From NCBI GenBank assembly GCA_965232515.1, contig CBDDPY010000002.1, positions 7,136,001 to 7,200,000 on the forward strand: a stretch of DNA of 64,000 nucleotides, in the 5' to 3' direction. This DNA is from Alphaproteobacteria bacterium. Lineage in GTDB: Bacteria > Pseudomonadota > Alphaproteobacteria > GCA-2731375. Each line of letters starts with the position of its first letter. Positions within the stretch are counted from its first letter, which is position 1. The position numbers were made by a program, and so were the translations under genes. This document shows positions 40,631 to 61,081 of the stretch, piece after piece. The notes under the pieces were generated by a model. It was not told the origin of the DNA. It searched no databases and worked only from the letters and a program-made list of their open reading frames with translations.

Positions 40631-41653
40631 TCATGCCGCACGAACGAGCGGCAAATTGAGCAACAGGTTTTGCGGTTTCAGTCGGACCGTGTCGTGGGCC
40701 GACATGGCAAGTCCCAGATAGACCGGTCGTCCGGCAATCGAGGGCAACATTACGCTGATGTCGCGGAATTCGAGCCGGAACAGCGCCAACAGGCGCGCCA
40801 GTTCGTCCTCGTCCACATCCCGGCCCTGATAAAGGCTGTTGAGGATCGCGCTCGCTTCGGCGTCAAGTCCGACATGCCAGACCCAATGCTCGTCCCGAAT
40901 CGAGGCCAGCGGCTGAACGCGCACCTCGAGATCGAGGAAATGCCCGATCCAAGCCTCCAGCACCCGGCACAGCGCATCGAGGCCCCGACGTGCGAAGGAC
41001 AGGTCGAGCAGGGTGTCGAACTTGTCGCTGCGCTGCCAGTAGATCGCGCTGTTCTCGTCGCTGAGGACGTCCAGTTCGACGCTGCGGGTTGGCGTCTGTG
41101 TCTGCACCAGAAGTTTGCCGAGCCCGCCCAGGCCGCCGGTTGTCGCGTAGAACTCGACCGTTTCCTCGTCGGCGAGCAGGATGGCGCCGTCCTGGAGGCT
41201 GACTTTTTGCGTCCGGAACAACAGCTCGGCCGCCCGCAGCCGCAGCGGGTCCGCGCAATCGTCCAGCACGTGGCGCAGCACGACATGCGTCAGCTGGTCG
41301 ACAAACAGCGGCGGCACATCGACCGGTCCGTCGGCAAACAGGCTGAGATAGCAGTCCTCGACACAGCCGTGCTCGGCCAACCGATCGCGAAACCGCAGCA
41401 CATGGCGATAGTTCTCGCGCGCGTCGGGATCGGCGATATCCGTCAGCATCTGTTCGGGCACGGGCCACAACGGATCGTCCAACAGCGTTTCGTGCAGCCG
41501 CCGTTCGTTGTCGCAGGACTCCGCGACCGGCTGCAGCTCCGGCCGGACGAAAAAGGCGCGCAGAAACTCCGGCGTCACGCGCAAGCGGCCGGCATCGTCC
41601 GACGTCAACAGATGAAAGCCCGACGAACGCCAGAAATCCGGCCTATCCGTCAT
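40631..41653 (-). CDS. DUF6352-family protein
   Basis: DFWRSSGFHLL...PEL.PV.ESC...WVWHVGLD...LKPQNLLLNLP. Confidence 0.72.
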   Translation of the reverse strand: MTDRPDFWRSSGFHLLTSDDAGRLRVTPEFLRAFFVRPELQPVAESCDNERRLHETLLDDPLWPVPEQMLTDIADPDARENYRHVLRFRDRLAEHGCVEDCYLSLFADGPVDVPPLFVDQLTHVVLRHVLDDCADPLRLRAAELLFRTQKVSLQDGAILLADEETVEFYATTGGLGGLGKLLVQTQTPTRSVELDVLSDENSAIYWQRSDKFDTLLDLSFARRGLDALCRVLEAWIGHFLDLEVRVQPLASIRDEHWVWHVGLDAEASAILNSLYQGRDVDEDELARLLALFRLEFRDISVMLPSIAGRPVYLGLAMSAHDTVRLKPQNLLLNLPLVRAA

Positions 41654-42122
41654 CGTCGACGATCTCCCAGATCTTCGCGTGCACCGGCTCCGGTCGTTGT
41701 TCGATGGCCCGAAACTGCTCGACGATTCCCTGCCCTTCGAAGCGGCGGTTGACGCATAGCACCGTATTGACGGCGTGTTCGCAGAGACTGCTGGCGAATT
41801 CCGCCTCCGCGCGGGCGGCGGTCTCCGCAGCGGCCAGGTCGGGTGCGCCGTAGTGCGACATCAAGTGTTGCGTCAGTGCGACGACGACCTGGTCATAAAC
41901 CCAGTCGCCGATTTCGGCCACCGCGACGAATGTGGACCAGCCGAAGCTCGCGGTGCCGAGAAAGCCGTTGGCGAATGCCTGACGCGCTTTGCCGGCGAGC
42001 CCGGCCGGATCGGCATCCGCGAAGACGAAAGCGCCCGACACTGCCCACTCGTCGGGTGCCGCTGCGTGTTCGAACGCATGGGAGTCCGAGGCATCGAAAC
42101 GTATCGTCCGCGGAAACCGCAT
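41643..42122 (-). CDS. DUF6505-family protein
   Basis: RTIRFDASD..F..AA..EWAVSGAF...RQAFANGFLG..SFGWST. Confidence 0.72.
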   Translation of the reverse strand: MRFPRTIRFDASDSHAFEHAAAPDEWAVSGAFVFADADPAGLAGKARQAFANGFLGTASFGWSTFVAVAEIGDWVYDQVVVALTQHLMSHYGAPDLAAAETAARAEAEFASSLCEHAVNTVLCVNRRFEGQGIVEQFRAIEQRPEPVHAKIWEIVDDDG

Positions 42123-42163
42123 TTTCTTCTCCGGCGCCGGCGGTTCGGTCGGCAGAGGTGAGA

Positions 42164-42946
42164 TTAGCAGATTACGTCCCGCCGCCGCGCCCGATCCGCC
42201 GCCTGCAAGGCGGCGGGCAGATTCACGGTCAGGGGGCCGGCGGCTGTCTGCAGGACAAGGTTGCCGTCGTTGTCGATATCGGTCGGCTTTCCGACATATG
42301 GACCGCTGTCGGCGGCGATTTCGACATCGTCTTCGTCTTCGCCGAAGCCGCTGGCGCGGGACAGCCAGGCGCGCCGCACCGGCGCCAGTCCTTCGTCCTG
42401 CCACCGGTTGATCCAATGCAGGAAGTGTCGGCTGAAGCTTTCCAAGAACGCCGGAACGCCAACGTCGCCGCAGCCTTCGTCATGCAATGTCGTGCGCATC
42501 GGATTTCGTCCCGGTGATCCATCGCTCGGGTCGTTGCCAACCTGCATGCTGACGCCGACCGCCAGCCAGTCCGGCACCGCTTTGAGATCGTTGGATTGAT
42601 CTGTCGCCAGCCGGATCGCGCCGGCGGCCGCGCCGTTGACGTCGATCCGGTCGGGCCAACCGAATGTGACCGCCACGCCGGGTGGGACCAGCGCGCCGAG
42701 AGCGTCGCCCACGCCCAGCGCCGCCAGGTAGAGGCTGAGATAGGCTGTTTCCAGAGGCTGCTCCGGCGCCAGGATCACGGCGCACTCGGCGGTCATTGGA
42801 TCCGGTGACCAGACAAAGGCGCCGGCATGTTCACCCGTCAGCGCCAGCCTGCGGGCCTCGTCCAAGGCGGATATGTCGCCGGCAGCGCGCACGAGCCGGT
42901 AGAGCGGCGGCAGGCTCAATGTTGCAGAACGAAAATCCGCGGTCAT
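42164..42946 (-). CDS. Biotin/lipoate-protein-ligase-like protein (FDH-cluster type)
   Basis: LPPLY, AVILAPE, FGWPDRIDVNGA, PDWLAVG and TTLHDEG; canonical KWPND is altered. Confidence 0.72.
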   Translation of the reverse strand: MTADFRSATLSLPPLYRLVRAAGDISALDEARRLALTGEHAGAFVWSPDPMTAECAVILAPEQPLETAYLSLYLAALGVGDALGALVPPGVAVTFGWPDRIDVNGAAAGAIRLATDQSNDLKAVPDWLAVGVSMQVGNDPSDGSPGRNPMRTTLHDEGCGDVGVPAFLESFSRHFLHWINRWQDEGLAPVRRAWLSRASGFGEDEDDVEIAADSGPYVGKPTDIDNDGNLVLQTAAGPLTVNLPAALQAADRARRRDVIC

Positions 42947-43262
42947 CGTCCGTGCGTGTTCCCGACGGCAAGAAGCGAGATCGGTACACTGCCCATGGCG
43001 CGAAGATGGACGCCACCGCGATAGCCATACCATGTGATGCCGCGGCGGCCAAAATGGGTATGTCGAAATGTCATGGCTCGACCGGCAAGCCGACGCCGCA
43101 ATGCCGAAGACGTTGTTGCGGGCTGGCCGGCATCGCGACGCCGCGACCCCTGTCGCCGCGCCAGAATGCGGGTCTGTCGAGAGATGTGTGCCGGCGGGGC
43201 CATCTTCGAGCGCATGGGCCGGAAAAATGAAGTAAATTGCCGCAAAAATGAGGTGGTGGAAG

Positions 43263-43976
43263 ATGACCCGGCCCGACATCCGCGGCGATGCCGCACGCGC
43301 CTTTGCCGTTCTGCGGGACGGTGGCGTCGCCATTCTGCCGATGAGCGTCGGTTATTCCGCCATCGGCGGCTCGGCGGCGGCGTTGAAGCGGATCTTCGAT
43401 ACCAAGCAGCGGGCCGACTCCAAGCTCAATGCCATGCTGGGCGATATGGAGTTGCATCGCGAGCTGCATGTGCTGGAGCCGAAGGGCTGGGATGTCGCCC
43501 GCGCCATTGTCGAAGACTACGACCTGCCGCTCGGCGCCATCGCGCCAGCGCGCATGGATCATCCTATTCTGCGCAACATGGAATCCGAGGCGTTGCATCG
43601 CTCGAGCCACGGCGGCACGGTGCTGATGCTGCTGAACGCCGGGCCGTTTCACGGCGAGATCTGCCGGCTGAGCCGCGAGGCGCAGCATCCGTTGTTCGGA
43701 TCGTCGGCCAATCTGTCACTGTCGGGCACCAAGTTCCGGGTTGAGGACATCGAGCCGGAAATCCTGGCCATCGCCGATATCGTGATCGACCACGGACTGC
43801 GCACCTATCATCTCTACCAGGGCTCGTCGACGCTGCTGAACCTGGAGACCTTCGAGGTCGTGCGCTATGGCGCCTGCTTCGAGCTGATCGCCGATGTGCT
43901 GGCGCGCCGTTTCGATGTGCAGCTGCCGCCGCCGCCGGAAGGGCATCTGCTGAATCTGATTGGCCACCGGCTCTGA
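43263..43976 (+). CDS. YrdC/TsaC/Sua5-family protein, atypical (copy 1)
   Basis: GGVAILP, K-x-R (TKQR), GSSANLSG and SSTLL. Confidence 0.75.
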   Translation: MTRPDIRGDAARAFAVLRDGGVAILPMSVGYSAIGGSAAALKRIFDTKQRADSKLNAMLGDMELHRELHVLEPKGWDVARAIVEDYDLPLGAIAPARMDHPILRNMESEALHRSSHGGTVLMLLNAGPFHGEICRLSREAQHPLFGSSANLSLSGTKFRVEDIEPEILAIADIVIDHGLRTYHLYQGSSTLLNLETFEVVRYGACFELIADVLARRFDVQLPPPPEGHLLNLIGHRL

Positions 43977-44025
43977 CCGGCGGCTGCCCATCATCACCCA
44001 ACACACCGGATTGGAGGGGGGACCC

Positions 44026-44727
44026 ATGTTCGAAGGGCGCGATATCGAGGGCGACGCGAAGGCTATCCTCGACACGTTGGCGGGAGGCGGCGTCGCCGTC
44101 TTTCCGGTCACCGTCGGTTATGCCGTCGTCGGCCACAGCGCCGATGCGGTGGCGCGGATCTACGCGGCGAAGGAGCGCAGCTTCGCCAAGCCCTGCGGCT
44201 GGTTCAGCGATTGGACGCTGTTCAACGACATCATCGAGGTCGACCAGCGGGCCCGCGACGTGGTGGCGTCGATCACGCAAAAGCATAACCTGCCGTTTTC
44301 CATCGTGGCGCCGTTCCGCGCCGACCATGCCTTCGTCAACGCCGTGCCCGAGTTCGTGCTGAAGAGCGCCAGCCTGCAGGGCACCATGGACATGCTGTTG
44401 AACGCCGGCGCGCTGCACGATGCGGTGGCGAAAGGCGCGCAGGAGCGCGGCATGCCGGTCGTCGGCTCGTCCGCCAACCGCTCGCTGACCGGCAGCAAAT
44501 ACCGGCTGGAGGACGTCGAGGCGCAGGTCCGCGAAGCGGCCGATCTGTGCATCGACTACGGCCTCAGCACCTATCACAACGATCGGGGGCTGGGCAGCAC
44601 CATCGTCGACCTGGTCAGCTACAAGACCTTCCGCATCGGCTGCGTCTACGACGACATCTGCCGCATTCTGTTGGACGAGTTCGACATCGACCTGAAGGCC
44701 ATCGGCACGGACAAGATCCCGGCCTGA
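44026..44727 (+). CDS. YrdC/TsaC/Sua5-family protein, atypical (copy 2)
   Basis: GGVAVFP, AKER, GSSANRS and GSTIVD; GGAGG RBS. Confidence 0.75.
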   Translation: MFEGRDIEGDAKAILDTLAGGGVAVFPVTVGYAVVGHSADAVARIYAAKERSFAKPCGWFSDWTLFNDIIEVDQRARDVVASITQKHNLPFSIVAPFRADHAFVNAVPEFVLKSASLQGTMDMLLNAGALHDAVAKGAQERGMPVVGSSANRSLTGSKYRLEDVEAQVREAADLCIDYGLSTYHNDRGLGSTIVDLVSYKTFRIGCVYDDICRILLDEFDIDLKAIGTDKIPA

Positions 44728-44755: not shown

Positions 44756-45646
44756 TCATCCCGTCTTTGGTCTCAGGCGATGTGGGTACTCGGACGCCGT
44801 GATGTCAGGACGGAGCGCGACAGCCGGCTCGCCTGTGCGTCGGTAAATCGCCAGATGGGCCGAGACGGTATCGAAGCCGGAGCAATCCGCCGGCAGGCGT
44901 TCGTGCTTGCCAAGCACGAGAAGACCGTCTGCCGCCGTTCGCGCGGCGAGGTTGGCGGCGAACCGTCGTTGCCGGTTGGCGTCGAAGTAGGTGAAGGCCA
45001 GGTTGCGGCAGAGCACGAGGTCAAAGGGACCGGCCGGTAGCTCCTGGCAGACGTCCTGTAGCCTGAACGCGACATGCTTCCGGATTTCGGACCGAAGGCA
45101 GAAAAGCCCGTCGCTGACGTCGAAGGCGGCGCGCCACGCCGGGGGCATATCCTTCAGGCTGCCGGCGTCGTAGCAGCCGCGCGCGGCCCGAGCCAGGCTC
45201 GCCTCGTCCGCGTCGATCGCCAGGATGTCGGGTGTTAGCCCCGGAAAACAGGGCGCCAGGTCGAAGCGCCAGGCGAGCGCGAGCGAATAGGGCTCCTCGC
45301 CGCCGCAGCAACCCAGGCTCAGGCATCGGAGGCGCATCTCGCCGGTCTGCGTCAGCCGCGTGCACATCGCCGGCAGAAGTTGGTCTTTCAGATGATCGAA
45401 GACACCCCGGTCGCGATAGAACCGGCTGATGGTGACGCGGCAGAGGCCGTCCAGCACCCGCCACTCGCCGCTGTCTTGCTCGAGACGCGTCCGATAAGCG
45501 TCGAGATCGCCGACGCCGAGCGCCGCGATGCGTCGGCGCAGCCGCTTGCAGACTTGTCCGCGCACCTTGCGATAGCCCGCCCAGCGCAGGCCCAGGCGCG
45601 GCAGCGCCCATTGCAGAAAGGCCGTGCAGGCGACCATCGACGGCAT
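44756..45646 (-). CDS. Orphan CheR-family SAM methyltransferase
   Basis: ISRFYRD, LGCCGGEEPYS, FDLVLCRNL and LGKHE. The start could be 45676. Confidence 0.82.
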   Translation of the reverse strand: MPSMVACTAFLQWALPRLGLRWAGYRKVRGQVCKRLRRRIAALGVGDLDAYRTRLEQDSGEWRVLDGLCRVTISRFYRDRGVFDHLKDQLLPAMCTRLTQTGEMRLRCLSLGCCGGEEPYSLALAWRFDLAPCFPGLTPDILAIDADEASLARAARGCYDAGSLKDMPPAWRAAFDVSDGLFCLRSEIRKHVAFRLQDVCQELPAGPFDLVLCRNLAFTYFDANRQRRFAANLAARTAADGLLVLGKHERLPADCSGFDTVSAHLAIYRRTGEPAVALRPDITASEYPHRLRPKTG

Positions 45647-45663
45647 AGGCGTTTCGGGATGTC

Positions 45664-48063
45664 CTACTGTCGGCACCGCGAACGGCTTTCCGGGTTGAGA
45701 TCGAGATCGACAATCAGCGGCAAGTGATCGGAGGCGAGGCGGGCGAGGCCGGTCCTCGGGACCTGAACGTTCCGCACCGTGATTCCAGGGCCGGTCAGGA
45801 CATGATCGATCCGTGCCGTGGGGTAGGGGCCGAACCAGGTCTTGGCCGGCCGCTGTCCGGGCAGCGATTGTTGCGCATCCCTCAGCTCGGTCGTGAGCCG
45901 GCGCAGGACCGGCGAACGCGGACCGGCGTTCAGATCGCCCAGCAGAACCGTCGGGCCGCGGCAGTCCGGATGTCCGAGCCAGTCGACGCCGAGCAGTGCC
46001 CGCGCCTGGGCCAGCCGTTCGCGGCGGCGGAGGCCGAGATGCGTGTTAATCACCTGCAACTCCACGTCGCCGAGGTCGATGCCGGCCCAGATTGCGCCGC
46101 GCGGTTCGTGCCGCGGCCAATGTCCGCGTCCGGGCAACGGTCCAGACTTGATCTGCCGCATCGGCAGTCGGCTGAGGATAGCGTTGCCGTACCGCTCCTC
46201 CTCGAGGTGGATGGTCGGGTGAAAGTGATAGGCCATTTCGAGATGCCGGGCGATCAGGCGCGCCTGGTCAACGCCGCCGGTGCGCGGCCGGCCGACGTCC
46301 AGCTCCTGCAACGCCACGATATCTGGTTCGTACCGGGCGATAACGCGCGCAATCCGATCCGTCGACGACCTGCCGTCCATCCCGATGCAGCTATGGACGT
46401 TATAGGTCATGATCCGCAGGCCGTCTCGTACCGGCCGGCGCATGAGCGACTTGACCGGCGTACGGCCGAGGCGTTCCAGCGCCGCCGCCCGCAAGTCCCC
46501 AGGGCGCAGATATGGCTTGCGGTGGTTTGCCGAGATCACGTCGGCGGGTAGCAGCGCGAAAGCGCGCGTCTCGTCAACGCCCGGTCCGCCATGCGCCCCG
46601 TTCTCGAGTGGAAAGGTCAGGCTTCGGCCATTGGGTCGCCAGCCAGAGATCACAAAATCGCCGGCATCCGCGTGGTGGCACAGCTTCACCATGTCGATGG
46701 CGACGTCCTCGAGGAACGGGTGGTCGTCCCCGAAGACGGCGCCGGCATCGCGCGGCAGGTGAAACCGTCCGGCCGGTGTCCAGGCCAGCGCGGCGCCGTC
46801 GGTATTCGCGGCGAGCACCAGCGGAATGTCGGCCGTCGAGACCATGGCGGCCGCCAGACGGTCGCGTTCTTTCGCTTCAAGCTGATGCGGCAGGTAGACC
46901 AGACCGAGCGGGCCGAGCGCGGTTACCGTGAGCTCGGTTGGCGGGGCTTGCGCTTGATCCGCACCATAGACCGGCAAGACACGCTGAATGCGCCGGCCAC
47001 CGAGGTGGCGCACGCGTTGGGTTTCGATGCCAAGCATGTCCGTCGGTGGTGAGCTCGCTGGCAGATCGGCGATCAGGTCGGCGATCGCGGCGCCGACGCT
47101 GCGCCCGTGCCGTCTGGCATAGGACTCAGTGTCCGCCTGACCGTGATCGGCATAGATCCACAGCTCATAGTCACGCTCGTGAGACCTGGCGGACGCCCGC
47201 CAGATGCGGGCGACCGCGTCGTCGATGCCCTTCAGCGACCAATGCGCGAAGAACGATCCGGGGCCGCGACGATGGGCCTGTTCGTCATAGCCAAGGAAGT
47301 TGAGATGGATGACCGGCAGGCCGCGGGCGATGTCCAGCTTGGCGCCGATCGTGACCAGCTCGCGCAGCAGGATGCAGATCGCGACCCGGGTCGGCACGAA
47401 CGTCAGTTCCTTGAGAATGTCGCGCCCCTCGATCAGACCGCGGAAGAAGTCGACGATGGCCAGAATCAGTTCAAGCGCCAAAAGGATACTCGTGCGCAGC
47501 AGGCTGTAAGCGTTGGTGATCAGCAGAAACGCGAGTGCCGCGGGGTTTGCGCCGCGAAGAATGGCGCCCCATCCAAGCGCCGCCGGACAGAAGTGCGGTT
47601 CGTCGGCGCCGCCGGTATAGACATTGAGATAGGCACTGCCCGCCTGAAGGAGCGGCGTGCCGCGTTTCTGGAGTTCGTGCTCGATGCGCGCCGCCGGTTG
47701 TGGTTCGAACATGCGGACGACCTCGCCGGACGCGCCGTCGCGGAAACTGAACGCGGGCACGGCAGTCTCGACCCCGTAGAACAGCTCGGCCTGAACGGCG
47801 GGCGTGGTCGACGGCAGGCCGGAATAGAGCGTGTGCAGCCGGTAATCTTCACGCCCGAGCAGGCGCTTGAGGAACGGCATCTTGCCGGCCGCGAGCGCGC
47901 GTTCGAGCTGCGCGCGCGAGAGGCCGTCGACCTGCACCATGATCAATCCCTGCGCCGTCGGAGCGTCGCTGGTCCGCGGCAACCGGAACAGGCGGACCAG
48001 CCACTCGCTGCGGTTCAGCAGCCGGCGCACGGCGTGCACGATCGCCGCGGCGCGGACGATCAT
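45664..48063 (-). CDS. Fusion of an alkaline-phosphatase-like domain and an endonuclease/exonuclease/phosphatase (EEP) domain
   Basis: N-terminal QVDGL, PSTTP, YDEQAH, ADHGQ and GAHGG; C-terminal MTYNVH, LQELD, NTHL, GDLN, IDHV and SDHLP; internal hydrophobic segment. Confidence 0.8.
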   Translation of the reverse strand: MIVRAAAIVHAVRRLLNRSEWLVRLFRLPRTSDAPTAQGLIMVQVDGLSRAQLERALAAGKMPFLKRLLGREDYRLHTLYSGLPSTTPAVQAELFYGVETAVPAFSFRDGASGEVVRMFEPQPAARIEHELQKRGTPLLQAGSAYLNVYTGGADEPHFCPAALGWGAILRGANPAALAFLLITNAYSLLRTSILLALELILAIVDFFRGLIEGRDILKELTFVPTRVAICILLRELVTIGAKLDIARGLPVIHLNFLGYDEQAHRRGPGSFFAHWSLKGIDDAVARIWRASARSHERDYELWIYADHGQADTESYARRHGRSVGAAIADLIADLPASSPPTDMLGIETQRVRHLGGRRIQRVLPVYGADQAQAPPTELTVTALGPLGLVYLPHQLEAKERDRLAAAMVSTADIPLVLAANTDGAALAWTPAGRFHLPRDAGAVFGDDHPFLEDVAIDMVKLCHHADAGDFVISGWRPNGRSLTFPLENGAHGGPGVDETRAFALLPADVISANHRKPYLRPGDLRAAALERLGRTPVKSLMRRPVRDGLRIMTYNVHSCIGMDGRSSTDRIARVIARYEPDIVALQELDVGRPRTGGVDQARLIARHLEMAYHFHPTIHLEEERYGNAILSRLPMRQIKSGPLPGRGHWPRHEPRGAIWAGIDLGDVELQVINTHLGLRRRERLAQARALLGVDWLGHPDCRGPTVLLGDLNAGPRSPVLRRLTTELRDAQQSLPGQRPAKTWFGPYPTARIDHVLTGPGITVRNVQVPRTGLARLASDHLPLIVDLDLNPESRSRCRQ

Positions 48064-49349
48064 TCTGCGCCGTCGTCGCCCTGCGCGCTCTGCACCAGGG
48101 CGGTGCCGGCCGCGTCCGCCAGCCCGGCCAGGACGTTCCATTCGGCCTCGATCAGACGCAGCGCCGCCTTCCAGGTGTCATAGGGTTCGTCATCTCGGGC
48201 CGGCTGCGTGCCGAGCAGACGCCGATAGATCGACAGGATTTTCTCCGCCGAGCGACCGATCGAAAAATTGTCCGCGGTCGTCCGGGCTGCTGCCGTCAGA
48301 CGACATCGCCGTGCCGGTGCGGCGCGTTCGATCTCGGCGATCGCCGAAGCGAAATCCGCGGCATCGGCGTCGGGCAGCAGGCGTCCATTGACGCCGTCGT
48401 CCACCACCTCGCGCGCACCCGGCGCCTCAAGCGCCACCACCGGCACGCCGGCCGCCATGGCCTCGGTCAGCACCATGCCCTGCGTTTCGGAAGTGGAGGC
48501 AAAGGCAAAGACGTCGATGGCGTTGTAGGCGTCCGCCAGGGCCGGATAGCCGAGCGACCCAAGGCAATGGAGACGCGCGCCGTGTCCAGCGCCGTCGAGG
48601 GCGCGGCGGATATCGGGTTCGGCGTCACCGCTGCCGACGACGAGGAAGTGCGCGTTTGGGCATTGGTCGAGAAAGCGGGCGACGGCTTCTGCCAGAAAGA
48701 GCAGGTTCTTCTCGGCCGCCAAACGCCCCACATGCCCGACAACGAAGGCGTCTTGGGGGATGCGATTTGTCTTGCGGCAGGTCTTACCATCGCCGTTGCT
48801 GAGGCGTTCGGTCGAGACGCCGGTCGACACCACGTCGATCGGCGCCGTCACGCCACGCTCGCGCAGAACGGCCTCGGTGCTCTCGCTGGGCGCGATGACC
48901 TGCGCGCACAGGTTAGCGTAGTTCGTTGCCAGATCGATAACGAACCGCTTCAGGATCGGGGAGTCGCCCGGCACATAGTGCGTGTAGTGCTCGTACATCG
49001 TGTGGTGGGTGAAGACCAGCGGCCGCGCGTGGGTGGCGGCGACGCGGATCGCCATCGTCCCGAGCAGGAATGGATGATGCGAATGCACGATATCGGGATC
49101 GAATTCGTCGAGCGCCGTGTGCAGCAGGGCGGAGATCGGCAGCACGACGGAGAAGTCGCTGCCATTGAAATTCTGAATGGCCGGGATGCGGACCACGTCG
49201 ATCTCGTCCGCCGGCATGTCCTCGAATTCCGGCGCGACCACCAGAACGCGATGGCCGCGCGCGCGGTACTCGGCGGTAAATGCCTCGACGGATCGCGCGA
49301 CGCCGCCGCGATGCGGCGTGAACGTATTCGTCATCATCAGGATATTCAT
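48060..49349 (-). CDS. GT4 glycosyltransferase (monoglycosyl-DAG synthase-like)
   Basis: MMTNTF.P..GGV, HSHHPF, HVGRLAAEKN and ETQGMVLTEAMAAG. Confidence 0.9.
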   Translation of the reverse strand: MNILMMTNTFTPHRGGVARSVEAFTAEYRARGHRVLVVAPEFEDMPADEIDVVRIPAIQNFNGSDFSVVLPISALLHTALDEFDPDIVHSHHPFLLGTMAIRVAATHARPLVFTHHTMYEHYTHYVPGDSPILKRFVIDLATNYANLCAQVIAPSESTEAVLRERGVTAPIDVVSTGVSTERLSNGDGKTCRKTNRIPQDAFVVGHVGRLAAEKNLLFLAEAVARFLDQCPNAHFLVVGSGDAEPDIRRALDGAGHGARLHCLGSLGYPALADAYNAIDVFAFASTSETQGMVLTEAMAAGVPVVALEAPGAREVVDDGVNGRLLPDADAADFASAIAEIERAAPARRCRLTAAARTTADNFSIGRSAEKILSIYRRLLGTQPARDDEPYDTWKAALRLIEAEWNVLAGLADAAGTALVQSAQGDDGAE

Positions 49350-51595
49350 GACGCCGCCGCCGACACCAGCTCGACCGAGTTCCGATCGCAGGCCGCGACG
49401 ACGGATTCCTGACCCGGCAGTCGCACCTCGATCGGCGGCGGCGCGTCATGCCAGTCCGCCTGCCAGGAAACGACAGCCTTACCCTGGACCATCCCGATCT
49501 CGATTGTGACCGGTCCGAAGGCGGTCGGCGCCGGCCCGAAGCTTATCGTCTGCCCGTCGACGAGCCAATCGGGCGCAACGCCTGCCGCCAGCACCAGTCG
49601 GTCCCCTTCCTCCCGGACGAAGCAGTTGCGCACCATCAGCAGCCATTCGGCGGCCGCCCAGACATGCTGGCCGTCGCCCATGCAGCCGCCGCCGGTGGCC
49701 GGATGGATGGCTTCGGGCCATTGCCCGGTCGGCGATGCCAGGTTGATGACTGTCGCCAGCATGTCGACGAAGCGCGGATCGCCGGCCCGCAGCAGCACCT
49801 GCGCCAGATGCAGCGTGAGATAGGGATTGATGCCGGAATGCACCATGTCCTGGAAGAGACCGCCGTCGACAAGGCAGTTTTCGAGCAGGAACTCGGCCGT
49901 GGTCAGCAGGCGCGGATCGTCGGGGTCGCAGAGCTGCAATGGATACCCCATCACCAGCGATCCGATGGCGCCGGAATCGAGACGGCGGTAGGGCGAAGCC
50001 GGCATCGCCGCCGTGCCGAGGCGCTTGGCGGCCCGGTCAAGGCTGGCGTCGACGTCACGACGGAACGCCTCTGCCTGATCGAGCAGTCGAGCCGCCTCGT
50101 CATCGTCGCCGATTTTTCGGAGGAGGTCTGCCGCGGCGTTGAGGCCGGCGATGCCCCAGAAATCATCCCAGTAATAGTAGTCGTTCGGTCCGAGATGCTC
50201 GGCGCTGAAGCCGGCCGGCAGCAACCCCGCGTGCGGGGCGTCAACCTCGCGGCTCAGGCGCTTGCGGCAGATCCATCGCGCACCCCTTCGGATGGGTTTC
50301 CGCCAATCCGTTTTCGGGGCCCGGCCCGTTAGCGCGCAGAAGCGCTGCATCGTCCAGAGCGCTTCGCCGTTCGAATCCCATTCTCCGTCCTGCGAATGAA
50401 AATAGCCGCCCGCGGTCTGCCGGCCCGGGAAGCGGTCGATGGCGCGCTCGGCCCGATCGTTCAGGCCAACCGCGAGCAGAGCGTGGACAAGGAAGGCCGC
50501 GTCGCGGAACCAGAACCGTTTGTAGGTGTAGGGCCCGGGATAGACGTCGCCGGGCGCGTGCAGAACGAGCGTTCGCACGGCCGCATCATAAAGGTACTGC
50601 ACACGGCGGTCGCCGATCGAGAGGCGGCAGGTTGGCGCCAGAACGGCCGGCCAGCCGTTCGTCTTCGCCGTCGTCGCCGTTCGGTCCATCGTCAGCGGCA
50701 CCTTGGCGGTGATCTGGTGCGGATGCTCGTCGTCGACCCGGAATAAGGCCGCGGCGGTAACCATGCCGATATCGCAAACCCCGTCCTGCTGCTCGTCCAG
50801 GTCCCGCAGGTGGATATAAACGTCGCCCGCGCGATAGTCCGAGACGTGATGACTGTCGACCGGCCGGTCAAACGCCACGGTGCCGCCGTCCTCGATCTGC
50901 CAGATCTGCCGGTCGTCCGACAGTGAGACGCGATGAACCAGGCCGATGCCTTCGGGGTTGTAGGGACGCAGGCTGACGACCAGCCAGCCTGGGCCGGCAA
51001 CCTTCGCGTGGAGCTGCAGCCGGCATGTCGGTACGCCGTTTTCGAGTTGAACGTCGGCGCGGGTGCGCAAGCTGCCGGCATCGCCGGCGACGTCGGTCTG
51101 CACCGCCAGCCCGTCATCGAAGTCCAGTTGCTGGTAGGCCTCCTCGACCCGGGAAGGCAACACGAGCCGGCCATCGTCGGTCATCAGCCAGGCATCGAGC
51201 GACCACTGGTCGTAGTGCGGCGTGACCAGGCCGCGCGGATCGACAATCGGCAGCTCGGGACAGTCCGGCCAGCCGATCGCCGTCCAGTTGCGATGCGTCA
51301 GGTTGATGTGCGTGATCGAGAAGGAGCGCGGGACAAAGGCCGGGTCCCCCGGATCGAACTGGCGCTCGACCCAGTAGGGCCAGACCCAGTCGAGATTGTG
51401 CTGAATCACGCGGGCGTTGATCAGGCCGCGCGCATGCAGCACGGCGCCGGCCCGCAGCAGCTCAACCGGCTCGGTCACCTCCGACGGCTGGGCGAACCGA
51501 TTGAGCCGGGCGAGCAGCGCGATCGGATCCAGGAACCCGTGCGTGCGCGCGGTCCGGCGGACAACGAAACGCCAGGGCAACCATTTCCACCAAAT
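49346..51595 (-). CDS. Six-hairpin (alpha/alpha)6 glycosidase-like protein (GH15/GH65-like)
   Basis: YKRFWFRDAAF, DGEWDSNG, SAEHLG..DYYYWDDFW and GQWPEAIH...GDGQH.W. The start is either TTG 51580 or ATT 51595. Confidence 0.7.
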   Translation of the reverse strand: MWWKWLPWRFVVRRTARTHGFLDPIALLARLNRFAQPSEVTEPVELLRAGAVLHARGLINARVIQHNLDWVWPYWVERQFDPGDPAFVPRSFSITHINLTHRNWTAIGWPDCPELPIVDPRGLVTPHYDQWSLDAWLMTDDGRLVLPSRVEEAYQQLDFDDGLAVQTDVAGDAGSLRTRADVQLENGVPTCRLQLHAKVAGPGWLVVSLRPYNPEGIGLVHRVSLSDDRQIWQIEDGGTVAFDRPVDSHHVSDYRAGDVYIHLRDLDEQQDGVCDIGMVTAAALFRVDDEHPHQITAKVPLTMDRTATTAKTNGWPAVLAPTCRLSIGDRRVQYLYDAAVRTLVLHAPGDVYPGPYTYKRFWFRDAAFLVHALLAVGLNDRAERAIDRFPGRQTAGGYFHSQDGEWDSNGEALWTMQRFCALTGRAPKTDWRKPIRRGARWICRKRLSREVDAPHAGLLPAGFSAEHLGPNDYYYWDDFWGIAGLNAAADLLRKIGDDDEAARLLDQAEAFRRDVDASLDRAAKRLGTAAMPASPYRRLDSGAIGSLVMGYPLQLCDPDDPRLLTTAEFLLENCLVDGGLFQDMVHSGINPYLTLHLAQVLLRAGDPRFVDMLATVINLASPTGQWPEAIHPATGGGCMGDGQHVWAAAEWLLMVRNCFVREEGDRLVLAAGVAPDWLVDGQTISFGPAPTAFGPVTIEIGMVQGKAVVSWQADWHDAPPPIEVRLPGQESVVAACDRNSVELVSAAAS

Positions 51596-51714
51596 AACAG
51601 CCTACCTCCCGATCATGTTTGAGATCGTGCCGTTGAGGTCACATTAGCGACGTCAACCGGATTCCGCCCGATCCTCTCGGCCAATCAGCTTCGCCAGCCC
51701 GAAGCACAGCATCG

Positions 51715-51728
51715 TTGACGCAAGTCAA
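51715..51728. promoter_or_regulatory. Fnr/FixK-like box TTGAC-GCAA-GTCAA upstream of the glycosidase operon
   Basis: Perfect TTGAC-N4-GTCAA palindrome in intergenic DNA. Confidence 0.7.
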
Positions 51729-51868
51729 TCGGACGCGATGCCGCCCCGCGAATTACGTTTTGGCGACCGGGCTCACGGCGGTGGATGGCGCATCATGGTG
51801 TCCTTTTCCGGAAACCGTTGGGATGGAACTGCTTCGACGTCACAAGAAGGCGCTCGAGGGAGAACCAA

Positions 51869-52612
51869 CTAGTCGTTCTGTGCACCCTCGGCGGCGTCGT
51901 TCAGGGCGTCTTGATCCAGAACGGTGATCAGCCGTGGCTTCGGAACTTCGACAATGCCCTCGTCGACAAGCTGGGCGAGGGCGCGACCGACGGTTTCGAG
52001 CCGCAAACCGAGATAGTCGGCGATTTCGGCGCGGCCAAGCGGCAGAACGATGGACGTGGACCGGTCGCCGGCTTGCTGTTGTCGGAACTGAAGCATCAGC
52101 AGAAGCGATGCGACCCGTTGCGTCGCGCTCAAACGCCCGAGCAGCAGGACATGGTCGCGTGCCGCGGCGAGTTCGTGGGATGCAAATTGCAGGAGCCGAT
52201 GCTCGATTTCGGGAAAGTCGGCGCAATGGTCCCGGAGCTCAAGCCGCGAGAACCGGCACAGTGCAACCTTTCCCACGGGCTCGGCCGAATAGTTGTATGT
52301 ACCGTCGGTGGCCAGGCCGAGAAAATCCCCGGCGAACAGCAGACCGGTTATCTGCCGTCGCCCGTCCCGCAGCAGTTTCGACAAGATGACGACGCCGTCG
52401 GTGATCACATAGACGAATTCGGCCTTGTCCGCTTCGAGGAAGATGTGTCTTGGCGCATTGATCTCGATGCGTTGAACAATCGCGTCGAGCCGATACAAAT
52501 CTTCAATTCTGTGCGCCGCGCAGATGGTCCTGCCGCGAACCGGGCAGGTGTGACAGATCGTGGAATGCGCCACCCCGGTTTGACCGCGCACGACAGGCCG
52601 TTCGTCTGCCAT
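51869..52612 (-). CDS. Crp/Fnr-family O2-sensing regulator (FnrL/AadR-like)
   Basis: N-terminal C-x2-C-x7-C (CHTCPVRGRTIC) plus internal Cys (ALCRF); DGRRQITG, AGDFLG and the HTH EIADYLGLRLETVGR; AGGAGG RBS. Confidence 0.88.
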   Translation of the reverse strand: MADERPVVRGQTGVAHSTICHTCPVRGRTICAAHRIEDLYRLDAIVQRIEINAPRHIFLEADKAEFVYVITDGVVILSKLLRDGRRQITGLLFAGDFLGLATDGTYNYSAEPVGKVALCRFSRLELRDHCADFPEIEHRLLQFASHELAAARDHVLLLGRLSATQRVASLLLMLQFRQQQAGDRSTSIVLPLGRAEIADYLGLRLETVGRALAQLVDEGIVEVPKPRLITVLDQDALNDAAEGAQND

Positions 52613-52756
52613 ACGCGATCCCTCCTCCTTGCATGACATTTGTGGATAGCCGGACTCAGACTGGCGCTCCCGACGTGGCCGCAGCTGCATTCCCGGTCGA
52701 GACATTGCCTGACGTCACAGCTCTACGCATTTTCGGCTTAGCCGCGACGAAAGATC

Positions 52757-52820
52757 TTGAGGTACGTCAACGCGGAAGCGGAACGTTGTCGATGTCTCGA
52801 CAAAGCTTGATGCGCGTCAA
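52757..52820. promoter_or_regulatory. Two Fnr-like boxes (TTGAG-GTAC-GTCAA, 52757-52770; TTGAT-GCGC-GTCAA, 52807-52820) flanking the palindrome TTGTCGA-N4-TCGACAA (52786-52803)
   Basis: Read directly in the fnr/ppsA divergent region. Confidence 0.7.
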
Positions 52821-52892
52821 CGACAACGGGGCGGGTCGCGCGTTGTGTTGCCACGCACCGCAATGCATCACCGAGACGTTTCCCGCCGCCCC

Positions 52893-55292
52893 ATGTTCAC
52901 TTCGTCGAACCAACAGTTTGTCGTGCCGTTGTCCGACGTCGGCGCCGATATGGTCGCCCAGGTCGGCGGCAAGAATGCGTCGCTTGGAGAGATGATCTCC
53001 GCGCTTGCCGGGACCGGCGTTTCGGTGCCGGCAGGATTTGCCACCACCGCCGCGACCTATTGGGCGTTTCTCCAGGCGAACGACCTAACGGACCGGATCG
53101 CCGCAAAGCTGGCGGATCTCAAGCAGCGGCAGGCCCGGCTGGAAACGGTTGGGCGGGCGGTTCGTGGGATGATCCTGCGCGCCGAGATCCCAATGCCGAT
53201 CGCGCAAGCCATCGTGCAGGCCTATCGGGATCTCGCTGCAGGTTATGGTCGAAAGACGCTGGACGTTGCGGTTCGCAGCAGCGCAACGGCGGAAGACCTG
53301 CCGGAAGCAAGCTTCGCGGGACAGCAGGAGTCGTTCCTCAACATTCGCGGCGAGGCGGCGCTGATCGACGCCTGTCGGCGCTGTTTCGCCTCGCTGTTCA
53401 CCGACCGGGCGATCGCCTATCGCGAGACGCACGGCTTCGACCATATGTCGGTCGCGCTGTCGATCGGCGTGCAGAAGATGGTGCGGTCCGACAAGGCGGG
53501 CGCCGGCGTCATGTTCTCGATCGATACCGAGACCGGCTTTCCATCCGCGGTGCTGATCAACGCGGCCTGGGGCCTGGGCGAGACGGTCGTTCAGGGCGCG
53601 GTCGATCCCGACGAATACATGGTCTTCAAACCGCTGCTGACCGACGAACGTCTGGCGCCGATCATCGAGAAGAGCCTCGGCGCCAAGGACGCCAAGCTGG
53701 TCTACGGGCGCGGGAAACAGCAGGCGACGCGGCTGACGGCGACGTCGAAGGGTGAACGCCGATCCTTTGTGCTCGACGATGGTGAGATCCTGCAGCTGGC
53801 GCGCTGGGCCGTCGCCATCGAGGCGCATTACGGCCGGCCGATGGATATCGAATGGGCGAAGGACGGCGAGACCGGCGCGTTGTTCATCGTGCAGGCGCGC
53901 CCGGAGACCGTGCAGGCGCGCCGCGAGGCGGGCCACCTGAAGAGCTATGCGCTGCGCCGAAAGGGGAAGCGGTTGCTGATCGGCCTCAGCATCGGCGACG
54001 CCGTCGCCACGGGTCCCGTGTGCAAGCTGCGCAGTCCCGCCGAGATCGGGAAGTTCCAGGACCATGCGATCCTGGTGACCGGGACGACCGATCCGGACTG
54101 GGTGCCGATCATGAAGCGGGCCGCAGCGATCGTGACCGACCATGGTGGCCGAACCTCGCATGCCGCCATTGTCTGCCGCGAGCTTGGCCTGCCGGGCATT
54201 GTCGGCGCCGGCGACGCCACGCGGGTACTGCGTAACGGCCAGGCGGTGACCGTGTCGTGCGCCGAGGGCGAGCAGGGTTTCGTCTATGACGGCGTCGCCG
54301 AGATACGTGTCTCGGAGACCGCCATCGCCGATATTCCGGCGACCCGCACCAAGGTCATGCTGAATATGGCCAACCCGGCCGCGGCCGCGCGTTGGTGGCG
54401 ACTGCCGGCCGACGGCGTCGGCCTCGCCCGCATGGAATTCATCATCAACAACCACATCAAGATCCATCCCATGGCGCTGGCGCACTGGGATGCGCTGCGC
54501 GACCGGGCGGCGAGGGCCCAGATCGCCAAACTCACCGACGGCTTTGACGACAAGGCAGCCTATTTCGTCGACCGGCTGGCGAGCGGCATCGCCCAGATCG
54601 CGGCGCCGCATTGTCCGAACCCGGTGATCGTGCGGATGAGCGATTTCAAGACCAACGAGTACGCCAAGTTGATCGGCGGCGCCGGTTTCGAGCCGCGGGA
54701 GGAAAACCCCATGCTCGGATGGCGCGGCGCCAGCCGATACTACAGCCCGGGCTATCGCGACGGTTTCGCGCTCGAATGCCAGGCGATCCGCAAGGTGCGC
54801 GAGGTCATGGGCCTGACAAACGTGGTCGTCATGATCCCATTCTGCCGCACGCTGGGCGAGGCCGACCGCGTGCTTGAGGTGATGGCGGACCAGGGCCTGC
54901 GCCGCGGCGACAACGGCCTCGAGGTCTATGTCATGTGCGAGATTCCGTCGAACGTAATCCTGGCCGACGCCTTCGCCGAACGTTTCGACGGCTTCTCCAT
55001 CGGCAGCAACGACCTGACGCAGCTGACCTTGGGCGTCGACCGGGACTCGGAGGCGTTGTCCGACCTGTTCGACGAGTCGAACGCGGCGGTGACCACACTG
55101 ATCGAAAACGTGATCGCGGCGGCGCACCGGCACGACTGCAAGGTCGGCCTCTGCGGTCAGGCGCCCAGCAACCGGCCCGCATTCGCGGCGTTCCTGGTGT
55201 CGGCGGGGATCGACTCGATTTCGGTCACGCCCGACAGCTTCATGGCCGTGAAGCAGCATGTCGCGGCGGCCGAAGCCGACCTTTCGGCCTGA
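52893..55292 (+). CDS. ppsA: Phosphoenolpyruvate synthase
   Basis: VGGKNASLGEM, AVRSSATAEDLP.ASFAGQQ, phospho-His GGRTSHAAIV, NPMLGWRG and FSIGSNDLTQ. Confidence 0.95.
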   Translation: MFTSSNQQFVVPLSDVGADMVAQVGGKNASLGEMISALAGTGVSVPAGFATTAATYWAFLQANDLTDRIAAKLADLKQRQARLETVGRAVRGMILRAEIPMPIAQAIVQAYRDLAAGYGRKTLDVAVRSSATAEDLPEASFAGQQESFLNIRGEAALIDACRRCFASLFTDRAIAYRETHGFDHMSVALSIGVQKMVRSDKAGAGVMFSIDTETGFPSAVLINAAWGLGETVVQGAVDPDEYMVFKPLLTDERLAPIIEKSLGAKDAKLVYGRGKQQATRLTATSKGERRSFVLDDGEILQLARWAVAIEAHYGRPMDIEWAKDGETGALFIVQARPETVQARREAGHLKSYALRRKGKRLLIGLSIGDAVATGPVCKLRSPAEIGKFQDHAILVTGTTDPDWVPIMKRAAAIVTDHGGRTSHAAIVCRELGLPGIVGAGDATRVLRNGQAVTVSCAEGEQGFVYDGVAEIRVSETAIADIPATRTKVMLNMANPAAAARWWRLPADGVGLARMEFIINNHIKIHPMALAHWDALRDRAARAQIAKLTDGFDDKAAYFVDRLASGIAQIAAPHCPNPVIVRMSDFKTNEYAKLIGGAGFEPREENPMLGWRGASRYYSPGYRDGFALECQAIRKVREVMGLTNVVVMIPFCRTLGEADRVLEVMADQGLRRGDNGLEVYVMCEIPSNVILADAFAERFDGFSIGSNDLTQLTLGVDRDSEALSDLFDESNAAVTTLIENVIAAAHRHDCKVGLCGQAPSNRPAFAAFLVSAGIDSISVTPDSFMAVKQHVAAAEADLSA

Positions 55293-55341
55293 TCACGATT
55301 GGCGCTTGCCGGCGCGCACGGTCGGCTTTCGGTGTTCAACG

Positions 55342-55355
55342 TTGAGTTACGTCAA
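55342..55355. promoter_or_regulatory. Fnr-like box TTGAG-TTAC-GTCAA upstream of hsp20
   Basis: Intergenic TTGA-N6-TCAA palindrome. Confidence 0.62.
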
Positions 55356-55442
55356 AAAGCAGCCGCGCGATTGGCGTTATTACGGTGAGGACTTGGGCGA
55401 CAAAGAGTGACCGAGCAAAGCACGACGCCGATGGAGGGATCT

Positions 55443-55997: not shown

Positions 55998-56059
55998 GCC
56001 GGCCGCGCCGCCGCATCTTTCCGGTACCGACGCCGGCCGGATGGCGCCGGGGTTTCGGC

Positions 56060-56956: not shown

Positions 56957-57003
56957 GCGGTTTGCCGGCCGCCGTCACCTCGTGAGGGCTTCGGGGTCGG
57001 TGG

Positions 57004-57291: not shown

Positions 57292-57402
57292 CACGCCCTC
57301 CTCGATTAGCGAATTCGATAAGTGCGTGCGTCTGACAGCGCTGCGATGCCGGTCGACGCACGTCATGGCCGTCAGATGTCGCGTAGATCAAGGTTTGCTG
57401 AA

Positions 57403-57416
57403 ATGACCTAGGTCAA
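57403..57416. promoter_or_regulatory. Fnr-like box ATGAC-CTAG-GTCAA between the lipoprotein and rpoH
   Basis: One mismatch to TTGAC-N4-GTCAA; intergenic. Confidence 0.5.
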
Positions 57417-58558: not shown

Positions 58559-58567
58559 TCCTGATTG

Positions 58568-61066: not shown

Positions 61067-61081
61067 AACAGCGAAACCCCG

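Follow-up and report, generated by a model that had tools for sequence, protein, structure and literature searches.

The 64,000-nucleotide (nt) stretch of alphaproteobacterial DNA analysed here (the window; part of contig CBDDPY010000002.1, or C2, of a 7.39-Mb genome in 4 contigs) carries a tightly coupled operon of four genes at 7.181–7.188 Mb. The operon encodes a glycosidase-like protein (GH, for glycoside hydrolase), a family 4 glycosyltransferase (GT4), a fusion of two phosphoesterase domains of the NPP and EEP (endonuclease/exonuclease/phosphatase) types and a CheR-like methyltransferase. The unit that recurs in other genomes is not this set of four: judged from gene neighbourhoods, the conserved system is the GH together with, in many loci, the GT4, a DedA-type membrane protein and the fusion. 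Tentatively, and with a confidence that falls somewhat short of even, we read this cassette as one for the synthesis and turnover of a glycosylated membrane lipid. In window positions, the four genes are:

49346–51580, minus strand: GH15-like six-hairpin protein (GH), 744 residues (aa), TTG start
48060–49349, minus strand: GT4 glycosyltransferase, 429 aa, ATG start
45664–48063, minus strand: fusion of NPP and EEP phosphoesterase domains, 799 aa when counted from the ATG of the ATGA overlap
44756–45676, minus strand: orphan CheR-type S-adenosylmethionine (SAM) methyltransferase, 306 aa, GTG start

The four open reading frames (ORFs) lie head to tail in the order GH, GT4, fusion and CheR. Both of the first junctions, GH/GT4 and GT4/fusion, are ATGA overlaps (TCATGAATATCC and GAATGATCGTC, at 49346–49349 and 48060–48063), and the GTG start of the CheR gene overlaps the stop of the fusion by 13 nt. 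From the TTG start the GH begins M-P-W-R-F, as do its orthologues; for the fusion, a longer ORF of 825 aa begins further upstream than the overlap ATG. Neither a signal peptide nor a transmembrane segment was found in GH, GT4 or CheR. An earlier note on this DNA, made from the letters alone, had claimed tight coupling and had assigned a six-hairpin fold to the GH, the GT4 class to the second gene (now placed by Pfam), an alkaline-phosphatase-type domain plus an EEP domain to the fusion and CheR to the last gene, and it was right on each of these points. Scans for sigma-70 promoters (0 sites against 1.1 expected, with no −10 element identified) and for terminator-like hairpins (5 against 5.5 expected) were uninformative. 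Contigs 95–99% identical to this region occur in three RNA-seq libraries of one study, the best of which covers 28 of 30 bins. They span the fusion/CheR junction (45396–45984 and 45555–45749), and a further contig (51336–51982) runs across the 5′ end of the GH gene, the regulatory box described below and the 3′ end of the adjacent fnrL gene. A related strain therefore has the same four-gene arrangement, and these data are compatible with its transcription.

The distribution of the cassette was examined in a scan of one genome per species, which gave 604 GH relatives among 640 candidate stretches; the best 80 loci (46–65% identity) were kept, and neighbours were counted by tblastn at those loci with enough flanking DNA. 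The 80 loci span at least eight phyla and come from Thermodesulfobacteriota, Gamma-, Alpha- and Betaproteobacteria, Nitrospinota, Nitrospirales, Verrucomicrobiota, Planctomycetota, Omnitrophota and a metagenome-assembled genome (MAG) of Thermoanaerobaculia. The GT4 gene lies directly downstream of the GH gene at 59 of 74 loci and the NPP-EEP fusion follows downstream at 33 of 64, while a gene with a DedA/VTT domain (Pfam VTT_dom) stands directly upstream on the same strand at 35 of 67, at −3 to 65 nt from the GH start where the gap was measured. Flanks long enough on both sides are available at 55 loci: DedA, GT4 and fusion are present together at 13, GT4 and fusion at 11, GT4 alone at 16, DedA alone at 14 (all of them Marinobacter) and none of the three at one; no other neighbour gene recurs. 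The operon in this window has GH, GT4 and fusion, without DedA. In one Chromatiales MAG a DedA-like gene sits between GT4 and fusion (L022:11579–12286), a rearranged yet complete cassette.

These counts give no support to a reading of the four genes as one conserved system. CheR follows the fusion at none of the 64 cassette loci, none of 52 metagenomic CheR relatives (34–66% identity; many of the contigs are short) lies beside cassette genes, and FNR boxes stand upstream of the GH gene at just 2 of 70 other cassette loci. What holds of the gene-neighbourhood conservation looked for is a core linkage of GH and GT4, often with DedA upstream and the fusion downstream, over at least eight phyla.

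The GH falls outside every sequence family with which it was compared. It matched no Pfam family at E≤0.01, Glyco_hydro_15 (PF00723) included, and no PDB entry by single sequence or by profile (the profile's chance match had an E value of 1.9); two GH15-type NCBIfam models, which demand 820 and 742 bits, gave just 19.4 and 16.3, and this leaves it outside the GH15 family models. Its own relatives are abundant. A word-indexed search returned 4941 proteins at E≤1e-5 among 8000 candidates scored; the best 120 of these have no Pfam domain and, where named, are called ‘hypothetical protein’, with a single ‘Discoidin domain protein’. An exhaustive search with a 34-sequence profile returned 912, 2352 and 3790 clusters (50% identity) at E≤1e-30, 1e-10 and 1e-3, respectively. 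In the ESM Atlas the nearest clusters are all ‘hypothetical protein’, and in clusters further away a minority of the members are labelled MGH1-like, rhamnosidase or GH65-C, which we take as a lead only.

Structure places the protein more closely. The AlphaFold model (pLDDT 84.2, pTM 0.85) has a beta-sandwich at residues ~100–300, an (alpha/alpha)6 barrel at ~320–655 and a C-terminal beta-sandwich. The fold comparison that the earlier note had suggested, carried out with this model in Foldseek and VIA-align, ranks GH15 first (Z 30–32), with GH65, GH78, GH125, GH94, GH116 and MmpH after it. The matches include dextran dextrinase (9ju0; VIA-align Z 32.2, 531 residues aligned, root-mean-square deviation (rmsd) 4.0), a 371-aa ‘Glycosidase’ that we take to be the Kribbella isomaltose glucohydrolase (5z3a–e; Z 31, 19% identity, ~310 aligned, rmsd 2.6–2.9), glucoamylase (1lf6; Z 30.7, 524 aligned) and glucodextranase (1ug9; Z 30.4). 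The GH thus has the GH15 layout of an (alpha/alpha)6 barrel after a beta-sandwich N-domain and an RD motif. It differs from GH15 in an extra conserved N-terminus of ~95 aa and in the C-terminal beta-sandwich, its identity to GH15 structures is only 12–19%, and it has no PF00723 or PDB match at the sequence level. A weak hhalign alignment pairs its YKRFWFRDA segment with NWDYRFCWLRDA of GH15 and sets two of its invariant residues, E461 (SAEH) and E623 (QWPEA), opposite two invariant glutamates of GH15, E397 of the ‘GLWE’ motif and E559 of ‘LLSED’, respectively. As E397 and E559 are presumably the catalytic pair of GH15, E461 and E623 are candidates for the acid and base of the GH. On the strength of the model, the GH is probably a distant GH15-like enzyme that acts on an alpha-glycoside, while by sequence it is not a member of GH15. 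A bona fide GH15 protein is encoded elsewhere in the genome.

The N-terminal ~95 aa are modelled with low confidence, yet they are among the most conserved parts of the protein, with more than 25 invariant positions that include DWVWPYW. A contact between GH and GT4 was considered as the reason for this conservation and is not the best explanation, because Marinobacter, without the GT4 and fusion, has the same N-terminus. An identity of the GH with the glucosylglycerol hydrolase GghA/Slr1670 was likewise rejected, as GghA falls in the unrelated GHL5 according to PMC5002435. Two individual loci stand out. In a gammaproteobacterial MAG (L058:8001–10193) the GH orthologue has 5 in-frame stops in the tblastn range next to an intact GT4 gene, possibly as a pseudogene or through an assembly error; in Novispirillum sp. 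DQ9 (L080:6564–10220) the GH-containing open frame is 1218 aa long, with ~480 aa more at the N-terminus, which could be a fusion or merely an open frame in GC-rich DNA.

Membership of the second protein in GT4 is clear from Pfam (Glyco_transf_4, 120 bits against a cutoff of 28.5; Glycos_transf_1, 108 bits against 26.4). All 56 orthologues compared share G15/G16, R209, K214 and the two glutamates of the EX7E motif, E288/E296; the C-terminal tail is conserved too, to about residue 406. The best NCBIfam model is Mgs, alpha-monoglucosyldiacylglycerol synthase (NF049988; 123.4 bits over the full length, 1–379), followed by MshA (109 bits, partial); the synthase GpgS for glucosaminyl-phosphatidylglycerol (GlcN-PG; NF053787) reaches 100 bits, again over the full length (1–379). 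All three scores fall far short of the curated cutoffs. Mgs and GlcN-PG synthase, the two full-length matches among the three best, are both lipid glycosyltransferases. The closest solved relatives are MshA (the best, 3c4q, 1.3e-16), HepE-like Alr3699 and PimA. The acceptor is not readable from these matches, which lean slightly towards lipids. In Marinobacter genomes (L090–L093) the best GT4 relatives (32–33% identity) are found in open frames of 784–826 aa, with the GT4 fused to something else and not next to the GH gene.

The third protein combines two phosphoesterases, and Pfam recovers both (PF01663, 30.3 bits against a cutoff of 23; PF03372, 100 bits; PF23226, 38.6 bits against 27). Its structure model has a pLDDT of 82.9, and its 2787 homologues over the whole fusion are named only ‘endonuclease/exonuclease/phosphatase family protein’. 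The parts of the fusion are:

46444–47973, minus strand: NPP-type (alkaline-phosphatase superfamily) domain, residues 31–540, by VIA-align fold match
47323–47544, minus strand: insertion within the NPP domain, residues 174–247, that forms a hydrophobic/amphipathic helical hairpin
45688–46431, minus strand: EEP phosphodiesterase/phosphatase domain, residues 545–792, by VIA-align fold match

The NPP domain aligns with Xac NPP (2gsn, 7n1s; Z 25.9, 328 residues, 18–19% identity) and with ENPP5, ENPP6, ENPP7 and ENPP4 (Z 25.2–25.7). Seven of its residues, D46, T87, D260, H264, D306, H307 and H491, are invariant in 24 homologues; going by motif, we take them to be the NPP metal ligands and the Thr nucleophile. 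Family model, fold, candidate nucleophile and metal-site ligands all agree in placing this domain with NPP/PF01663. The EEP domain is closest to 4ruw (Z 29.7, 30% identity), then to the mannosyl-6-phosphatase Bt3783 (4c1r, Z 26.3), TDP2 and nocturnin (~Z 25) and neutral sphingomyelinase (8j2f, Z 24.8). It too keeps its catalytic Asn/Glu/Asp/His set, with N555, E587, H675, D710, N712, D753, D779 and H780 invariant in the 24 homologues, and by this set and the PF03372/PF23226 match it belongs to the EEP family. The match to PF23226, the Cwh43/PGAP2IP subgroup, covers just profile positions 7–139 of 239, and PF03372 scores far higher. Bacterial enzymes of the Cwh43/PGAP2IP cluster strip phosphocholine or phosphoethanolamine from C6 of N-acetylglucosamine (GlcNAc), according to a 2023 article in the Journal of Biological Chemistry (PMC10704324). 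The hairpin consists in the model of helices 174–183, 185–211 and 216–247; its Kyte–Doolittle maximum is 2.2 at residue 193, and the means over 24 homologues are 1.56 (185–211) and 0.86 (216–247). Modelled in this way, it suits dipping into a membrane better than spanning one. These invariant residues and the hairpin at 174–247 bear out an earlier claim that both phosphoesterase domains retain their metal-binding motifs and that a hydrophobic segment is present.

Regulation sets this copy of the cassette apart. The elements that lie upstream of the operon are:

51715–51728, read on the minus strand as TTGACTTGCGTCAA: FNR/FixK-type palindromic box TTGAC-N4-GTCAA, exact match
51869–52705, minus strand: FnrL-like Crp/Fnr regulator directly upstream of the operon, Pfam cNMP_binding and HTH_Crp_2
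52757–52820, in the divergent fnrL-ppsA intergenic region: two TTGA-N6-TCAA boxes, by pattern search

The box is centred 141 nt upstream of the GH TTG start. The exact pattern occurs 9 times in the genome, against 5 for a control pattern, and four of the nine fall within 18 kb around the operon. For the looser form TTGA-N6-TCAA the window has 7 sites, which are confined to 51715–61095; 0.35 would be expected for the whole window, and none of 100 shuffles reaches 7. Three further such boxes lie just outside (C2:7200791, 7205322 and 7205436). Given this clustering, the excess over expectation and the FnrL-like gene directly upstream, the box above the operon is more than a chance match, and the claim of an Fnr box made earlier is backed in silico by a perfect box, an adjacent FnrL-like gene and a seven-box island. 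The regulator, the likely true start of which is Met32 at 52612, scores 167 bits with FnrL (equivalog cutoff 300) and 139 bits with FixK. It has a cysteine cluster, Cys51-x2-Cys54-x7-Cys62, and Cys150, and we take the C-x2-C-x7-C spacing to be of the FnrN/FnrL type; Crp/Fnr domains, N-terminal cluster, central cysteine and TTGA-N6-TCAA operator together make it FNR/FnrL-like. The remaining boxes of the island precede hsp20, an AMP-binding acyl-CoA-synthetase-like gene, a DUF2267 gene and an NfeD/SPFH pair, and the island also contains a YkuD L,D-transpeptidase and an RpoH-like sigma factor. The island resembles a low-oxygen stress regulon whose genes have been gathered in a single place.

The likeness to the FnrL/FnrN/FixK regulons lies in a Crp/Fnr regulator with C-x2-C-x7-C and in boxes before ppsA, hsp20 and other stress genes; the differences are a regulator below the FnrL equivalog cutoff (167 against 300) and a box predicted from sequence. 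We know of no glycosidase/GT4 operon among FnrL, FnrN or FixK targets. Low-oxygen expression of the operon is a well-founded prediction. No FnrL-like gene was found near the cassette in the 80 loci. In two proteobacterial MAGs (L029 and L075), the loci counted above as having FNR boxes, two TTGA-N6-TCAA boxes each lie 83–200 nt upstream of the GH gene with no Crp/Fnr gene nearby, a sign that the cassette may have come under FNR-type control there independently. Phosphate-starvation control was tried and rejected: in 67 loci, E. coli-type Pho boxes upstream of the cassette had the same best-match distribution as shuffled sequence, while Pho boxes of other phyla may differ.

The CheR-like protein matches Pfam PF01739 with 118.3 bits (cutoff 27) over profile positions 3–191 of 195, so that its SAM domain is that of CheR, and it aligns with solved CheRs over residues 26–260 (1.4e-18). 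CheR_N (19.3 bits against a cutoff of 27) and PRK10611 (57 against 435) both stay below threshold, for the N-terminal domain and the equivalog, respectively. It is an orphan, as claimed before, with no chemoreceptor or CheB nearby: the genome's sole che cluster (CheW, CheR and CheB, at C2:5.8438–5.8477 Mb) is 1.3 Mb from the operon and its CheR is 30–31% identical to the orphan, and the 7 genes for methyl-accepting chemotaxis proteins (MCPs) lie at 1.016–1.035 Mb and 4.778 Mb, all at least 1.3 Mb away. Six large MCP genes (open frames of 940–1089 aa) stand in tandem within 19 kb at C2:1016012–1034849, far from the che cluster. Metagenomic relatives that are 47–66% identical to the orphan form a distinct CheR subgroup with the motifs FLQWALPR.GLRW.GFRKVRRQVCKR at the N-terminus and GCCGGEEPY. 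One of them, 61% identical (L114), has 1.6 kb of upstream DNA with a divergent homocysteine S-methyltransferase gene; another, 48% identical (L115, with 9 kb on each side), has unrelated neighbours. Because CheR follows the fusion at none of the 64 loci, it looks like a lineage-specific add-on that stands outside the conserved system.

The GH is absent from all 40 relatives searched (one from its own genus, 23 more from its family and a further 16 from its class), and on this ground the operon was acquired horizontally; probably more of the FNR island was too. A CheR of any kind is absent from 18 genomes of the same family. No clean insertion site was found: three relatives share just the tandem YrdC-like pair beyond the 3′ end of the operon, fnrL, ppsA and the rest are not syntenic, and a comparison with these relatives does not delimit the acquired segment.

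We propose the following working scheme. The cassette would have a glycosylated lipid as its substrate and would probably work on it from the cytoplasmic side of the inner membrane. GT4 would transfer a hexose from a nucleotide sugar, probably in alpha linkage, with diacylglycerol or the head group of a phospholipid as the acceptor; the GH15-like enzyme would take the sugar off again, setting the level of the glycolipid or recycling it. The fusion, held on the membrane by its hydrophobic hairpin, would either cut phospho-head groups and so supply the acceptor, or edit phospho-substituents. An FnrL-type [4Fe-4S] oxygen sensor acting on the box would switch the cassette on when oxygen runs out. 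CheR would lie outside this core chemistry, most likely as an extra receptor methyltransferase under anoxia or else with another target. DedA/VTT proteins have been linked to lipid flipping. We infer the lipid from the coupling of glycosyltransferase and GH with matching anomeric logic (an alpha-glycoside made by a retaining GT4 could be cleaved by a GH15-like enzyme), from DedA, and from the hydrophobic insertion and the lipid and sugar-phosphate fold neighbours of the fusion, namely two lipid phosphodiesterases, ENPP6 and ENPP7, together with neutral sphingomyelinase and a sugar-6-phosphatase.

A good deal weighs against this scheme, which is built on sequence, context and models. Known GH15 enzymes act on soluble alpha-glucosides, and hhalign gives just a weak link (E 8.9e-4, probability 23%) between the GH and a profile of ten bona fide GH15 proteins, which were drawn from this and related genomes. 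The GT4 stays below the equivalog cutoffs of both lipid enzymes (400 for Mgs and 480 for GpgS), and MshA, which uses a soluble acceptor, scores nearly as well as Mgs. The hairpin is no classical membrane span, as its helices carry on average 4 (185–211) and 8.5 (216–247) charged residues in the 24 homologues. The fusion is absent from 31 of the 64 loci and was not found elsewhere in five genomes searched, three Marinobacter with GH and without GT4, and Methylobacter and Chromatocurvus with GH and GT4; the fusion is therefore dispensable. Nor was an orthologous GT4 found in five Marinobacter genomes (best identity 33%). In the present genome the best DedA paralogues are 33–36% identical and located elsewhere, and there is no DedA of the cassette type. 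An analogy with phosphate-starvation remodelling gains no support from the Pho-box comparison. The contigs from RNA libraries have low depth and also cover the convergent neighbour, so DNA carry-over or separate transcripts are possible. Finally, it is not obvious why a single operon should co-express one enzyme that builds the product and another that degrades it.

Among the alternatives is a soluble product: we regard it as unlikely, though deserving of serious weight, that GT4 glycosylates a phosphorylated small acceptor, one phosphoesterase domain dephosphorylates it and the GH degrades the resulting cytoplasmic alpha-glycoside, a stress solute or reserve. MshA, sucrose-phosphate synthase and glucosyl-3-phosphoglycerate synthase all glycosylate phosphorylated small acceptors, and MshA is both the second-best NCBIfam model and the best PDB match of the GT4. 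Synthase, phosphatase and hydrolase are, as generally understood, the standard logic of compatible solutes, and the GH15 family, to which the fold of the GH points, includes trehalases and glucoamylases acting on soluble sugars; the fold neighbour Bt3783 of the EEP domain is a sugar-6-phosphatase, and GH, GT4 and fusion are all devoid of a signal peptide. A soluble cycle would leave aside the membrane protein DedA, coupled to the GH at over half of the loci counted, and the hydrophobic hairpin in the NPP domain; its phosphatase step is missing from roughly half of the loci and from the genomes that lack the fusion, and where the fusion is present two different phosphoesterase domains exceed the need of one dephosphorylation. 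The known glucosylglycerol hydrolase GghA, moreover, belongs to another fold family, GHL5 (PMC5002435). In another reading, which is decidedly unlikely, the NPP domain transfers a phospho-alcohol from a phospholipid to the sugar installed by GT4, much as the eukaryotic ethanolamine-phosphate transferases of glycosylphosphatidylinositol synthesis do, the EEP domain removes this group and the GH removes the sugar. Pairs of adder and remover would then explain the glycosyltransferase with the GH and the two phosphoesterase domains together. The fold of PF01663 type with its Thr nucleophile is intact, and the EEP domain passes the PGAP2IP/Cwh43 model, bacterial members of which hydrolyse phosphocholine or phosphoethanolamine from GlcNAc C6 (PMC10704324). 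Sequence cannot tell transferase from hydrolase activity, however, and the PF23226 match is partial, with the general EEP model far ahead. The fullest form of this reading, in which GT4 and GH add and remove the sugar on a lipid, NPP (as a transferase) and EEP add and remove the phospho-alcohol, DedA flips the product, and the whole was captured in this genome by the FNR regulon and joined by a carboxyl methyltransferase, seems to us very unlikely. If true, it would be a prokaryotic counterpart of the editing of glycosylphosphatidylinositol (GPI)-type glycolipids, the GH would found a lipid-acting family of glycoside hydrolases, and the membrane surface would be rewritten on entry into anoxia.

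The methyltransferase enters two further readings. In the mycobacterial methylmannose-polysaccharide cluster, the hydrolase MmpH, the GT4 ManT and methyltransferases work together, and the composition of hydrolase, GT4 and SAM methyltransferase seen here resembles it. A self-priming cytoplasmic oligo- or polysaccharide system, in which the GH cuts primers, GT4 elongates them and the methyltransferase modifies the product, would explain the co-expression of GH and glycosyltransferase, and MmpH (7qsj) is among the fold matches of the GH (Z 27.4 over 315 residues). The neighbours from GH15 outscore MmpH, however, the methyltransferase is of the CheR (carboxyl) type and is missing after the fusion at all 64 other loci, and DedA and the NPP-EEP fusion would have no role; of the readings weighed here, this is the least probable. 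It is also improbable that CheR takes part in the chemistry of the cassette in some other way, whether its target is another protein of the operon or a carboxyl group on the product, for example in a uronic-acid lipid. In its favour are the 13-nt overlap with the fusion stop, the contigs of the related strain that span this junction, the 1.3 Mb that separate the gene from the che genes, and the distinct subgroup with its own N-terminal motif at 30% identity to the che-cluster CheR. The same counts that exclude CheR from the conserved system (0 of 64 loci; 0 of 52 relatives up to 66% identical, with many contigs short) oppose it, and the 7 MCPs of the genome are possible ordinary targets. A role in defence was rejected, as PADLOC has no match for GH, GT4 or fusion and CheR reaches just 17 bits with mad2. 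Set against these alternatives, the lipid cassette is the reading that we retain.

No described pathway or paper on the cassette turned up in literature searches (subscription journals being outside their coverage), Pfam, NCBIfam or PADLOC, and the earlier statement that no pathway of this composition had been described stands to that extent. Of the systems described so far, PlcP-Agt and gpgSDF/hexSDF come nearest, yet in each of them every enzyme apart from the GT4 class differs from the cassette. PlcP-Agt remodels phospholipids to glycolipids in Sinorhizobium, Agrobacterium, SAR11, Phaeobacter and Pseudomonas aeruginosa under the control of phosphate starvation. The likeness is that a phosphoesterase able to free diacylglycerol and a GT4-type lipid glycosyltransferase share one operon and act at the membrane from the cytoplasmic side. 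In contrast to the cassette with its NPP-EEP fusion, PlcP is a metallophosphoesterase; PlcP-Agt has neither glycoside hydrolase nor DedA; its control is by phosphate starvation, whereas the cassette gives no Pho-box signal and this copy lies behind an FNR box; and in the cassette the phosphoesterase is optional. The operon gpgSDF of Pseudomonas aeruginosa, for GlcN-PG, encodes a cytoplasmic GT4, a deacetylase and a putative flippase of the YbhN/AglD2 type, according to PMC12713373. Its editing enzyme and its flippase are thus of other types than in the cassette, it has no GH or phosphodiesterase, and the cassette GT4 reaches 100 bits against the 480-bit cutoff of GpgS. A comparable three-gene operon, hexSDF, is reportedly present in Clostridioides difficile, and the make, edit and flip logic of the two parallels GT4, GH/phosphoesterase and DedA in the cassette. 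Among eukaryotic systems, the GPI-anchor enzymes draw on the same three superfamilies for one glycolipid: PIG-A is a GT4, PIG-N/O/G are ethanolamine-phosphate transferases of the NPP type (PF01663), and Cwh43/PGAP2IP has an EEP domain, the Pfam model of which the cassette EEP domain passes. The eukaryotic proteins are polytopic and work in the lumen or membrane of the endoplasmic reticulum, and the cassette is without a deacetylase or mannosyltransferases. Particular to this copy are its FnrL/FNR-box control within a low-oxygen stress island, the loss of DedA, the appended orphan CheR and its clear horizontal acquisition; the analysis further adds the negative Pho-box test over 67 loci.

The family to which the GH belongs is very large and is without a Pfam model, a solved relative detectable by sequence or a functional name, and it is coupled to GT4 across at least eight phyla, in many sediment anaerobes. 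Once its substrate is known, it would probably constitute a new glycoside-hydrolase family. The substrate would also reveal an unrecognised glycoconjugate of the membrane or cytoplasm and provide a function for a common DedA subgroup and for the ~2800 fusion proteins named ‘EEP family’. The present genome offers a practical handle: with 4 contigs and apparent FNR control, shifts between oxic and anoxic conditions should switch the cassette, and its two natural departures from the usual cassette, the missing DedA and the extra CheR, lend themselves to tests.

Beyond its 3′ end, the operon faces a convergent YrdC/Sua5-like gene on the plus strand (43960–44727). This gene and its neighbour (43272–43925, plus strand) are tandem paralogues that share 37% identity; relatives keep both genes at 62–79% identity, in surroundings that all differ. 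On the minus strand, at 40631–43333, follows a string of overlapping genes for DUF6352, DUF6505 and BPL_LplA_LipB_2 (biotin/lipoate-ligase family) proteins.

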